Shown here piece after piece: positions 60,386 to 63,596 of a stretch of DNA of 64,000 nucleotides. This stretch comes from a virus. Its lineage: Duplodnaviria; Heunggongvirae; Uroviricota; Caudoviricetes. Below the pieces are notes generated by a model that had not been told where the DNA came from, made no database searches, and saw only the letters and a list, made by a program, of their open reading frames with translations. The position numbers were made by a program, and so were the translations under genes. Location of the stretch: IMG/VR virus record IMGVR_UViG_2872147552_000001; one strand, written 5' to 3'. Position 1 is the stretch's first letter, and every line of letters starts with the position of its first letter.

Positions 60386-60404
60386 ATCGGTAAGCACTTA
60401 CCAG
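60386..60404 (+). promoter_or_regulatory. class B palindrome in regulator's own upstream region
   Basis: atcGGTAAGCACTTACCag about 30 nt before the regulator ATG. Confidence 0.45.
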
Positions 60405-60433
60405 AGAGAATTGAACGCGCAAAGGTTGTAACC

Positions 60434-60820
60434 ATGTCTGATAACAAGATTGAATTTATAGAAAGTCGCTACGCTGCTTTTATCGCAGGGTTGATTGAAT
60501 CCTCACCTATGAGCCAGGCCCAGATAGCCAAAACAATTGGGTATAAAAACGCCAACAACCTTTCTTTAATTAAAAGCGGCAAAATTCCTTTGCCTATCGA
60601 TAAGGTTCGTCCGCTGGCGCTGGCACTGGGTATTGAGCCAAGTCGTCTTATGATGATGGTGCTGGAAGAACGCCAACCCGAACTCGCAGCATTTTTATAC
60701 AAAGAAGGCACTGCTCCTCTTAACGAGGACGAAAAACAGGTTCTTGCTGCATATAACGAGCGATTCGGTAAAGAGAAAGGCGCATCACAAAAGGTTGTTG
60801 AGGCCATAAAGTCTCTATGA
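60434..60820 (+). CDS. XRE-family helix-turn-helix regulator
   Basis: HTH-like MSQAQIAKTIGYKNANNLSLIKSGK. Confidence 0.55.
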   Translation: MSDNKIEFIESRYAAFIAGLIESSPMSQAQIAKTIGYKNANNLSLIKSGKIPLPIDKVRPLALALGIEPSRLMMMVLEERQPELAAFLYKEGTAPLNEDEKQVLAAYNERFGKEKGASQKVVEAIKSL

Positions 60821-61918
60821 AAAATTTACACGAATAAGCTCTGTTGATAGACGATCTCCCTTAAATTTGTGGTCAATTTCGTCTAAATCCGGTTGCTCTA
60901 CGATTGATGCGATGTACGTCGAGAAACTTTCTAATGCGTCTCGCATCTCGTCCATATAATCGTGCCGGTCGTAGACCCGATCTATCCCCTCAAGACTGTG
61001 GTTCATGATTTTACGTGATACCTCCTGGCTTATGCCTAATGCTGGGAAGTAACTACGCGCAGTACGGCGCAAATCTCGGGGTGTAAATGGCTCAAGCTCC
61101 ATCAGTTCTGGTCGTTCCAGAATACGACGTAATGCCTGGGCTATTGCCACTTTAGACATAGGAAGGTCTTTCCCGATTTTTTTATTCGAAGGCACGAGCC
61201 ACTGGCTGTCTTTACCATATTCGAACAACTCTTCAATACAAGTGCGCATTAATGAGCTTAAAGGCAGAGAATGCTCACGGGCAGATTTGTTCCTCTTGCC
61301 TTGATTCCAAACCCCACGCTTAAGATTGAACTCACTTTTTTTAGCCCGCAGTACTTCGTCAGGTCGTCTTGCGGATACAAGACATAGCCTGGCCGCCCAT
61401 TTTGTACCAGCACACACATTGAAGTAGTCCCATATATTCCAGAACACCCATACCTCTGCGTCGGTCAGCTTCCGCTCGCGAGGTGTGGGCTTTGCGCCAC
61501 CGGCAACTTTGTTAAGTGACATATCGTTTAACGGTGACACGTCTATCATCCCCTGGAAGGCGCACCAGCTAAGGAACTGCTTCATCAGAGAGAAAACGCG
61601 GCGGCCCATAACAATTTTGCCATCCAGTATTAGTGGGTTGACCAGTTGGTTCACCATGAACCTATTAATATCACTTACTTTTACATCGGCAATGTGCGGC
61701 AAAACATGTATCAAAATACAATGAACAGCGATCTCTGGCCGACGTCTGGTTATCAGCAGAGATAAGCGAGTGAATAACATGAATGCGTCCGAGAATCTCA
61801 TGTCATTGCTGACCTGGGAGATCATAACGGCCTGCATTTGAGATGCTCTTTCGAGATACTCTATCGCCTCTTTTGAGGTGTTCTCCGCAGCGCGTGCTCT
61901 GTCAAAGCTATTTTTCAT
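60815..61918 (-). CDS. int: tyrosine site-specific recombinase (P4-type integrase)
   Basis: C-terminal R...H..R...Y catalytic pattern with HSLEGIDRVYDRHDYMDEMRDALE tail typical of P4-family integrases. Confidence 0.7.
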   Translation of the reverse strand: MKNSFDRARAAENTSKEAIEYLERASQMQAVMISQVSNDMRFSDAFMLFTRLSLLITRRRPEIAVHCILIHVLPHIADVKVSDINRFMVNQLVNPLILDGKIVMGRRVFSLMKQFLSWCAFQGMIDVSPLNDMSLNKVAGGAKPTPRERKLTDAEVWVFWNIWDYFNVCAGTKWAARLCLVSARRPDEVLRAKKSEFNLKRGVWNQGKRNKSAREHSLPLSSLMRTCIEELFEYGKDSQWLVPSNKKIGKDLPMSKVAIAQALRRILERPELMELEPFTPRDLRRTARSYFPALGISQEVSRKIMNHSLEGIDRVYDRHDYMDEMRDALESFSTYIASIVEQPDLDEIDHKFKGDRLSTELIRVNFS

Positions 61919-62128
61919 ATGACAATCACCGAGTTACGCCGATGCACTGTATAAGTAAACAGTATATTAGGCATAGATTCTTATAGGATCAAGAGTAAAA
62001 GTAACTCATTTTCAGCAATGATTCCATACATAGTAGGTATGGAATCATTTTGACGTTGTTTTTTGAATTTTAAGGGAAATGGGAGTGAGTTTGGTGGGAA
62101 TAAAAACGGCTCCTGTGAGCCGTTAAAA

Positions 62129-62374
62129 TCAGAGGGTGCTGACGTATGCAGCCAGTTCTGTGTATCCGCCAATCGGCTGGCCATCGATCAGCACCTGGGG
62201 GATAGTCTCTACCGGTTTACCAACAATTTCACTTAGTTTTTCCTTGTCGATACCGGCAGTGGTGATGTCGATGTACTCATAATCACCGTAGCCATGTCCC
62301 TTTAGTTGCTTCGCCAGCTCGACCGCACGTTTGCAGTATGAGCAGTTATCTCGTCCGTAGATAGTGATCGTCAT
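62129..62374 (-). CDS. glutaredoxin (NrdH/NrdC-like)
   Basis: CSYC active site near N-terminus, 81 aa. Confidence 0.65.
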   Translation of the reverse strand: MTITIYGRDNCSYCKRAVELAKQLKGHGYGDYEYIDITTAGIDKEKLSEIVGKPVETIPQVLIDGQPIGGYTELAAYVSTL

Positions 62375-62721
62375 TGCTTTGCCTCATGCCACTTTTGCTT
62401 CAGGAGATAGCCTTCCAGGGGCCAGATTTGATCGATAGCATCTTTTCGAGCGTACTCGCGACCAACATCAAAGTTGAAGATTTCTGGTCTTACGCACGCA
62501 GATTTTCCCGTTACGGTATATCCATTTTTGAGAACCATAACGCAGAACGTTAAGAGTTTTAACGACTCATGACCTTTGTCGATATCTGTTTTTGAATTGT
62601 AAACAGAGATGAAGTTATCCCCGTGGCTGGCATCATATGCAGTGAAATAATGTTCACTTTGAATGAGTTGTTCAATGTGTTCAGGGGTGACTTTTAGTGG
62701 TGTGTTATCTTTGCTGGTCAT
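62371..62721 (-). CDS. hypothetical protein (116 aa)
   Basis: 4-nt overlap with glutaredoxin. Confidence 0.45.
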   Translation of the reverse strand: MTSKDNTPLKVTPEHIEQLIQSEHYFTAYDASHGDNFISVYNSKTDIDKGHESLKLLTFCVMVLKNGYTVTGKSACVRPEIFNFDVGREYARKDAIDQIWPLEGYLLKQKWHEAKQ

Positions 62722-62764
62722 TATTTCTTCCTACAAAGTTCGTAGACTTGACTCTTTCAGTTGC

Positions 62765-62795
62765 AAAAAAGGGGCCGAAGCCCCTTTGAATTTTG
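62765..62795 (-). terminator. rho-independent terminator
   Basis: ggggccgaagcccc hairpin flanked by A/T runs. Confidence 0.5.
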
Positions 62796-62942
62796 CGCTG
62801 AAAAAAAGTGTTGCTAGGATGTTAGCAAGCTATGGTTAAGAACGTCTGCCGTAATTGTCTATCACAGCGTTGAGCGGTCTGGTTTATGTTAGCGGAGTCT
62901 TAATCTGGGTGATTAAAAGGCCAAACCGCTCAACGCTGTGTC

Positions 62943-63029
62943 TGGCGGAGAGTAATGGAATCGAACCATCATCGCTTGCGCAATGGGACGGTTTTCAAGA
63001 CCGCTTGAGCACCATGCTCCCTACTCTCC
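62943..63029 (-). tRNA. tRNA-Ser (anticodon TGA), type II
   Basis: Acceptor GGAGAGT/ACTCTCC, anticodon loop cTTGAAAa, long variable arm, GGTTCGATTCC T-loop, encoded CCA. Confidence 0.5.
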
Positions 63030-63349
63030 AGCTATTGTGATGGTCGGTGCTGAACTCCGACACAGGGTTGTAGCAAGCCCCGCAAAGCGCGCACTACTGT
63101 AGTTGCGGCACATCAGCCTGTGCATTCATCACAACGGTAAGATCACTACCTTTCGACCAGTCATTGTGCACATGAACGACGATTAACCGTAATGATCTTA
63201 TCGTTGTGTTGTGAAGCCAGATGCTTATCTTCTGGTTGCTTCAAAGAGCTGCACTTCCTCACAACGGTAAGAGCACTGGTCTGACTCTATCGATTTACGG
63301 GCTTGTGGGTCAGTATCGCCGATTCGCCCAATGCTCTTACCTGTTGTGT

Positions 63350-63425
63350 TGGTGCCGGTTAACGGGATCGAACCGCTGACATCCTGCTTACAAGGCAGGC
63401 GCTCTACCAACTGAGCTAAACCGGC
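63350..63425 (-). tRNA. tRNA-Thr (anticodon TGT)
   Basis: GCCGGTTTAGCTCAGTTGGTAGAGC ... loop CTTGTAA ... GGTTCGATCC ... CACCA. Confidence 0.7.
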
Positions 63426-63429
63426 AATT

Positions 63430-63516
63430 TGGTGGGGAGTGATGGAGTCGAACCACCCGAGTCGCAATGACAGTAGATTTACAGTCTACCCCGCTGCCCC
63501 TACGGACTAACTCCCC
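63430..63516 (-). tRNA. tRNA-Tyr (anticodon GTA), long variable arm
   Basis: Anticodon stem-loop GTAGA-CTGTAAA-TCTAC; GGTTCGACTCC T-loop; CCA end. Confidence 0.7.
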
Positions 63517-63521
63517 TAAAT

Positions 63522-63596
63522 TGGCGATGGTGGGTGGATTCGAACCACCGACCAGTTGGTTAACAGCCAACTGCTCTACCGCTGAGCTACACCATC
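63522..63596 (-). tRNA. tRNA-Asn (anticodon GTT)
   Basis: Anticodon stem-loop GTTGG-CTGTTAA-CCAAC; GGTTCGAATCC T-loop; CCA end. Confidence 0.7.

Follow-up and report, generated by a model that had tools for sequence, protein, structure and literature searches.

A lox-like palindrome conserved beside the integrase gene of SSU5-type phage-plasmids suggests a plasmid dimer-resolution module

Dimers of large low-copy plasmids are converted to monomers by systems such as ResD/rfsF of the F plasmid, Rsd/crs of the Salmonella virulence plasmid and the host XerCD recombinases with cer or psi, while P4-type (CP4-57/IntS-like) integrases normally target the 3′ ends of tRNA genes. In Cre/loxP of P1, a low-copy plasmid prophage, a single tyrosine recombinase without arm-binding domain is encoded near a minimal site, in which a short asymmetric spacer separates two 13-bp inverted repeats. 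The role of Cre is dimer resolution (PMC7969092). Here, we analysed a stretch of 64,000 nucleotides (hereafter the window) from the Caudoviricetes record IMGVR_UViG_2872147552_000001, which encodes a tyrosine recombinase, Int, next to a 33-bp palindrome that we call site A. The comparisons suggest that Int and site A probably, though far from certainly, constitute a Cre/loxP-like plasmid dimer-resolution module and not a tRNA integration system; the original prediction for this locus had named both options.

Positions 59900-64000 of the window share 99.7% identity with Escherichia coli plasmids of 107-113 kb and, over 89% of their length, 98% identity with Escherichia phage Cyrano, an SSU5-like phage-plasmid (strain LF82). 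The element is therefore a phage-plasmid of the SSU5/pHCM2/pMT1 type, a group already well known, and its life form is that of a low-copy plasmid of ~110 kb. Neither the element nor its genes are new, and annotations exist for them; the persistent genes of the SSU5 supergroup include tyrosine recombinases (PMC7969092). A function for this integrase is assigned in none of the published work that we found.

Site A, AATGATTCCATAC-ATAGTAG-GTATGGAATCATT, forms a perfect inverted repeat between the terminator-like hairpin of the glutaredoxin (grx) operon and the int start codon (61918). Its two 13-bp arms around an asymmetric 7-bp spacer correspond to the anatomy of a tyrosine-recombinase core site. 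In all relatives fetched the arms lie 45-130 bp upstream of int and are kept while the spacer differs. Arms identical to those of the window occur in Cyrano, pMT1, pHCM2 and the Klebsiella, Citrobacter, Kluyvera and Chimaeribacter relatives, around spacers that read ATAGTAG in the window and Cyrano, CTATTAA in pMT1 (Yersinia pestis), pHCM2 (Salmonella Typhi) and Kluyvera, CTACCAA in Klebsiella, CTTACAA in p1919D62-2, CTAAAGA in p09EL50 and CTATAAA in Citrobacter. A Klebsiella plasmid whose Int is 59% identical has both arms symmetrically altered to TGTGATTCCATAC, and at 45-53% Int identity both arms are nnTGACTCCAGAC. The Pantoea, Erwinia and Rahnella plasmids examined carry class-2 arms, TGACTCCAGAC, in sites of the form TGACTCCAGAC-N7-GTCTGGAGTCA; Pantoea and Erwinia plasmids with an Int of 47-49% identity retain the site with arms TGTGACTCCAGAC or TATGACTCCAGAC. 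Across the family, the arms thus covary with Int in the sequences compared.

The same layout extends to other Enterobacterales species. When one genome per GTDB species was scanned, 63 full-length family loci came up, and each of them (63/63) has a 13-7-13 palindrome, with two mismatches or fewer, located 45-250 bp upstream of int; we calculate a chance expectation of ~0.007 per locus. The spacers follow the consensus nTAnTAn, most commonly TTAATAG or its reverse complement, and occur in both orientations relative to int. A resolution site would not suffer from this, since in a head-to-tail dimer its two copies always form direct repeats. In every replicon examined, site A is intact and never split as attL/attR. 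The class-1 arm sequence is absent from the searchable literature, and the few string matches to the class-2 arm look unrelated by title and abstract. Nine bp beyond the cargo-side arm, flank alignments scored by per-column information content reveal a motif, TTTTTTGAAwTCTG (plus strand), of modest conservation, which may bind an accessory factor or bend the DNA. An RNA role for the palindrome, as terminator or hairpin, was considered and rejected: it folds at -17.9 kcal/mol, but the T-run begins 9 nucleotides past the stem, and it is the arm sequence that is conserved, not merely the pairing.

Operators of dimeric proteins, too, typically combine conserved arms with a variable centre. Site A could accordingly be a transcriptional operator only, bound by Int or another protein and controlling int or the cargo operon without any recombination. 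Its place in the int promoter region, between terminator and start codon, would suit such a role, as would the position of two solitary arms (B and D, described below) at the 5′ side of transcription units. We nevertheless hold this explanation to be improbable, since perfect 13-bp arms with centres 20 bp apart and a 7-bp spacer have the geometry of a recombinase core site and not of a helix-turn-helix (HTH) operator, and since the full catalytic set of Int is conserved across 45-100% identity, which argues that catalysis is under selection. The neighbouring HTH regulator was ruled out as the ligand of site A: its promoter has another conserved palindrome, of 12-14 bp, and three annotated Pantoea/Erwinia loci that lack the HTH gene keep the site. 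Persistence without the HTH gene, covariation with Int and the separate palindrome of the HTH gene lead us to assign site A to Int.

Int matches PF00589 with 40.6 bits (cut-off 27.1). Its central domain stays below threshold for PF22022 (22.8 bits, cut-off 27), and the NCBIfam P4-like model PRK09692 yields 33.9 bits for a cut-off of 434, aligned at model positions 137-393 of 413 only. A Pfam scan of the window protein gave no match to Arm-DNA-bind_3/DUF4102 (PF13356). Searching a protein collection returned ~110 cluster representatives of ~365-380 amino acids with 44-100% identity to the window protein, the named members being all from Enterobacterales; in more than 100 family members with precomputed Pfam domains, PF22022 and PF00589 are listed and PF13356 never. 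The next matches beyond the family (26-34% identity) are classical P4-type integrases with PF13356. The Int family appears to descend from P4-type integrases and to have lost their N-terminal arm-binding domain. Of the label 'P4-type' in the original prediction, the distant relationship stands: these integrases are the nearest sequence relatives, with PF22022, PF00589 and a C-terminal ...HS.EG.DRVYDRHDY signature in common. A P4-type integrase in the strict sense is at odds with the missing arm-binding domain and with the two sub-threshold scores. Other differences are that the Int family resides on plasmids and does not adjoin tRNA genes, that its site is an intact palindrome instead of split attL/attR, and that its HxLR box has Arg in place of His.

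An alignment spanning 45-100% identity shows R185, K211, R284, H307 and Y316 to be invariant. Every family member has Arg (R281) in the HxLR box at the place of the first catalytic His usual in tyrosine recombinases, giving RDLRR for HDLRR; the P4-type outgroups retain His. The R281 codon lies at ~61076-61078 of the window. The AlphaFold (AF2) model of Int, with a pLDDT of 82, shows the two domains of a tyrosine recombinase preceded by a helical N-terminal extension. By Foldseek, its fold best matches lambda Int in the core-binding and catalytic domains (E 6e-7), then Tn1549 Int, XerH and IntI, with Cre chains behind them (E 0.03-0.4). By sequence, phmmer found no match to Int among solved structures in the PDB. 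The resemblance to Cre is hence one of predicted working and not of homology: there is no detectable sequence relationship, the Int fold is nearer lambda Int, and the spacer measures 7 bp in a nearly fully palindromic site (8 bp in loxP). Both systems have a single recombinase that lacks an arm-binding domain, both have a minimal site in which 13-bp inverted repeats flank a short asymmetric spacer, and in both the site is close to the recombinase gene on a low-copy plasmid prophage.

The genomic distribution of int bears directly on the suggestion that the element may integrate at a host tRNA related to one of its own and lead a dual life. Among 5,426 complete E. coli genomes, in which integrated copies were to be looked for, 252 carry the int region, at 254 places in total, all on plasmids and none chromosomal (0/254), and a 76-nucleotide query centred on site A likewise has no chromosomal match. 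Almost all family members examined come from plasmid records or from contigs of plasmid size; tblastn found relatives of Int in 939 plasmid records, 792 of them with at least 60% identity. In a 324-kb plasmid carrying int, the phage-plasmid fragment is edged by insertion sequence (IS) and transposon (Tn) elements and not by the site, with no cointegrate made by Int. In favour of integration, older literature reportedly has pFra/pMT1 integrating into the Y. pestis chromosome.

Nor does the locus bear the marks of a tRNA target. Rfam at E<=1 recovers the four tRNA genes only, with no tRNA fragment near int, and the predicted att site identical to a tRNA 3′ end did not materialise: when four element and seven E. 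coli K-12 tRNAs were compared with positions 59850-62900, the single match of at least 12 nucleotides was a 12-mer from an anticodon arm, inside the int coding sequence and at chance level. Among 60 family loci from other species, just one has a tRNA gene at a distance of 4 kb or less. No excisionase is recognisable near int among the domain and PHROG profile matches. What speaks for tRNA integration is the descent of Int, 23-34% identical to P4-type integrases that have the arm-binding domain, and an 8-mer, GATTCCAT, that the site arm at 62017-62029 has in common with the T-arm of the element's tRNA-Ser (62953-62975). The class-2 arm and the tRNA-Tyr T-arm similarly have GACTCCA in common. 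These matches may be relics of a T-loop target of the ancestral P4-type integrase, or chance (roughly 5%, by a rough estimate). With all E. coli copies on plasmids, the site unsplit in every replicon examined and the arm-binding domain gone, we regard integration of the element into a host tRNA 3′ end as very improbable. The original prediction's alternative, multimer resolution, fits the data better than its integration scenario, given the lox-like palindrome conserved beside int in every family member examined; an internal resolution site, exclusive action on which had been named as the refutation of integration, would be represented by site A, a candidate recognised through sequence comparison. 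The conclusion that either outcome implies a dual plasmid/integrated lifestyle does not follow, because a resolution system goes with a plasmid-only lifestyle.

Plasmid-only copies, intact sites, the missing tRNA link, the lack of another annotated recombinase or Xer site and the loss of the arm-binding domain together fit a dimer-resolution module. Int would resemble Cre or Flp in that a dimer of it binds a single, simple site. Should homologous recombination fuse two plasmid copies, the resulting head-to-tail dimer would carry two sites as direct repeats; recombination between them by Int would restore monomers, and the partition system would thereby be able to segregate the copies. Bound at site A, beside the int promoter, Int may also autoregulate its own gene. 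Host Xer recombination was rejected as the resolution system of this element: Xer sites have 11-bp arms, long accessory sequences and host enzymes, and the closest complete plasmid contains no recognisable XerCD dif/cer-like site (0 found, 1.0 expected in shuffles). The task we propose for Int is the one performed by ResD and Rsd, and this likeness rests on the proposed role, not on sequence comparison; the same role as that of Cre is expected.

DNA beyond the cargo-side arm of site A is variable, and raises the question of gene exchange. The arm is followed by grx, gp49 and the tRNA genes in the window; by CYRAN_43 in Cyrano; by a YafO toxin-antitoxin module, IS1 and phsABC in p1919D62-2; by a DUF6645 gene in p09EL50; by the caf1R-caf1M-caf1A-caf1 F1 capsule operon in Y. 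pestis pMT1; and by a hypothetical gene, grx, gp49 and phoH in pHCM2. In the fetched piece of pMT1 (NZ_CP045150.1), the caf1 operon (113-5241) adjoins the site (5870-5902). CYRAN_43 lies directly beside the site of Cyrano (5287-5841 of the fetched piece). This hypothetical gene, absent from the window, is expressed in lysogens 723-fold over the local prophage background (PMC9928086). Many megablast alignments to the window end at 62049/62050, the edge of the arm. A mosaic junction exactly at that edge had to be softened: the 9 nucleotides adjoining the cargo-side arm are variable and are followed by the weak shared A/T-rich motif, and the cargo boundary therefore falls within ~25-45 bp of the site and not at its last base.

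The arm also exists in single copies. An exact 15-mer, AATGATTCCATACAT (arm plus 2 nucleotides), stands alone at three places, termed B, C and D, which are its only further occurrences in the 113-kb plasmid. In four lineages, site B falls precisely on the boundary between backbone and variable cargo. It is oriented directly with respect to the cargo-side arm of A and is conserved in p09EL50, pHCM2 and the Klebsiella and Citrobacter relatives. Site D, ~800 bp past the window end (1476-1490 of the fetched record), overlaps the start codon of a small open reading frame (ORF; MIPYISL...) with a good ribosome-binding site; Citrobacter retains both B and D. Site C, within the 5′ part of dnaE (codons C-M-E-S-L) and inverted relative to B, is conserved in six relatives, which protein-coding constraint partly explains. 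C and D have 20 nucleotides in common in this element and are mutually inverted. At none of the three was a partner arm recognisable. Solitary one-arm sites recall the sfx sites of the Rci shufflon of IncI plasmids. A shufflon-like inversion between C and D was nonetheless ruled out, 240 of 244 plasmids being contiguous across C with no inversion polymorphism, and the spacers not being consistently identical in relatives; the spacers of the solitary arms, B included, also mismatch that of A.

Variable genes beside a recombinase gene further recall the IntI/attI platform of integrons. By analogy, whether or not it also resolves dimers, Int could join foreign DNA to site A, so that modules accumulate as at attI, with B and D as hybrid sites at the far ends of captured modules. 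Several observations point this way: almost every lineage has a gene content of its own past the cargo-side arm, the alignments stop at the arm edge, plasmids with identical Int and identical spacer have unrelated DNA after it, and B sits exactly at the opposite backbone/cargo boundary in direct orientation. Other observations oppose it. Sites A and B have different spacers (ATAGTAG and ATCACAT, respectively), hence the two should not recombine today; B, C and D lack a recognisable second arm; in 56 Pantoea/Rahnella-type loci, no extra arms occur up to 4 kb from the site; IS/Tn elements edge the phage-plasmid fragment of the one large cointegrate examined; and no attC-like elements accompany the locus, unlike in integrons. 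A conserved essential site beside dispensable DNA would moreover yield a sharp boundary without any capture by Int. Such exchange by Int is therefore, in our judgement, unlikely. Equally doubtful is the broader version, a capture platform common to SSU5-type phage-plasmids and large Enterobacterales plasmids at which the caf1 operon, toxin-antitoxin pairs and tRNA clusters were inserted or swapped.

Several points weigh against dimer resolution, the reading we prefer. That Int binds and recombines site A, with dimer resolution as its main role, is inferred from sequence, and we found no experimental work on the protein in the searchable literature. R281 replaces the usual catalytic His family-wide, so catalytic activity cannot be assumed. 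Pure autoregulation would equally predict a conserved palindrome in the int promoter region. The family may have one exception to plasmid residence: a Biostraticola tofi member with an intact site (3871-3903 of the fetched piece) on a 904,681-bp contig, possibly chromosomal. In the closest complete plasmid, Int is the sole annotated recombinase, in an annotation that is incomplete. Variable cargo right beside site A hints that gene exchange could be a further or alternative role, and the three solitary arms, conserved across lineages, are left unexplained by a simple resolution model. The Int gene of B. tofi neighbours a peptidase M3 gene and a PTS permease gene.

The features of the region are collected in Table 1. 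All coding in the last 8 kb of the window is on the minus strand, except for one plus-strand gene, that of the HTH regulator. The tyrosine recombinase, the HTH regulator and the four tRNA genes are all present where the original prediction placed them, the nearest tRNA gene being 1,025 bp from the int start. The regulator had been described as divergent from int; the two genes are in fact convergent, with abutting stop codons (CTA|TGA) and a 6-bp overlap (60815-60820), and it is from a 70-amino-acid ORF that the HTH gene diverges.

Table 1. Coordinates of the features at and around the int locus in the window
Feature	Position	Strand	Remarks
DnaE-type polymerase	52745-56251	-	
Site C	55986-56000	+	solitary 15-mer within dnaE 5′ part
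CobS-like AAA ATPase	56432-57667	-	
CobT-like protein	57763-59871	-	
Conserved 70-amino-acid ORF	59970-60182	-	phrog_2627; divergent from HTH gene
Promoter-like site of HTH gene, then palindrome (candidate operator)	60360-60402	+	TTTACA-16-TAATAT at 60360-60387; GGTAAGCACTTACC at 60389-60402
HTH (XRE-like) regulator	60434-60820	+	128 amino acids; phrog_8, weak HTH_19
Tyrosine recombinase Int	60815-61918	-	367 amino acids; PF00589
Site A, candidate recombination core site	62017-62049	no strand	13-7-13; 98 bp upstream of int start codon
Weakly conserved A/T-rich flank motif	62059-62072	no strand	from flank alignments
Intrinsic terminator-like hairpin	62105-62124	-	end of tRNA-gp49-grx cargo operon, just before site A
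Glutaredoxin (grx)	62129-62374	-	cargo gene
Gp49-family protein	62371-62721	-	cargo gene
tRNA cluster Ser-Thr-Tyr-Asn	62943-63596	-	cargo
tRNA-Ser(UGA)	62943-63029	-	
tRNA-Thr(UGU)	63350-63425	-	
tRNA-Tyr(GUA)	63430-63516	-	
tRNA-Asn(GUU)	63522-63596	-	
Site B	63789-63803	-	solitary arm + 2 nucleotides

The HTH protein matches phrog_8 'transcriptional regulator' (1.3e-11) and, weakly, HTH_19 (19.7 bits, under the cut-off of 30.2); RefSeq names its orthologues HTH or XRE regulators. The Cyrano orthologue, CYRAN_45, is annotated 'putative repressor' and expressed in lysogens (PMC9928086). The promoter region of the gene, with a palindrome directly after the promoter-like site, is conserved in the E. 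coli, Yersinia, Salmonella, Klebsiella and Citrobacter relatives. Its palindromic motif, GTAAGNACTTAC (in extended form about ATAGGTAAGnnCTTACCTAT), has 13 matches at nine places of the window for 0.72 expected; the 12-mers start at 6222, 19199, 24168, 26384, 35929, 46365, 50912, 57730 and 60390, seven of the nine places lying outside any ORF of at least 100 amino acids and one at the HTH promoter. This dispersed set follows a logic like that of the dispersed C1 operators of P1. Based on the palindrome at its own promoter, the dispersed motif copies and the annotation of CYRAN_45, the HTH protein is most likely a prophage repressor with its own dispersed operators (GTAAGnACTTAC). It is best read as functionally separate from Int and is not needed to explain site A. 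The convergent layout recurs in the SSU5-type relatives examined, and transcription from the HTH gene might dampen int expression. The 70-amino-acid ORF adjoins the HTH gene in most of these relatives and may be its partner in a regulatory switch.

The tRNA genes differ from their chromosomal counterparts in E. coli, as had been suspected: identity to the K-12 isoacceptors is only 64-80%, with 61/95 identical positions for Ser/serT, 61/76 for Thr/thrU, 63/90 for Tyr/tyrU and 50/77 for Asn/asnT. The Thr-Asn block with its spacers (62920-63455) was compared with the tRNA regions of P1, P7, D6 and vB_EcoM-Ro157c2YLVW, and is 84-92% identical to those of P1, P7 and D6. Because these P1-type phage-plasmids are unrelated to the element, the cluster seems to be a module common to phage-plasmid families. 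Cyrano has Ser-Thr-Asn only, without Tyr. The cluster is cargo that happens to sit in the variable region beside site A. Four long imperfect hairpins lie between and around the tRNA genes (62863-62940, 63127-63211, 63266-63341 and 63863-63984), with stems of 14-23 bp, related termini (CACAACG/CACAGCG...) and z-scores of -4.3 to -9.8 relative to shuffled sequence. They fold far better than such shuffles, match no Rfam family and could be a small mobile repeat or act as processing signals.

There seems to be no earlier description of a P4-derived recombinase family that lacks the arm-binding domain and is paired, across phage-plasmids and large plasmids of Enterobacterales, with a conserved lox-like site of 33 bp. 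The 'integrase' annotated in hundreds of SSU5/pHCM2/pMT1-type plasmids gives no sign of a chromosomal, integrated state, and the present reading corrects what is likely a misinterpretation. The hypothesis is concrete and cheap to test, requiring one protein and one 33-bp site. If Int is active, the arm classes AATGATTCCATAC and TGACTCCAGAC, together with the many natural spacers, would provide new orthogonal lox-like pairs. The position beside the site is also where these plasmids keep their variable cargo, which in pMT1 is the F1 capsule operon, and this bears on how that virulence plasmid was assembled.

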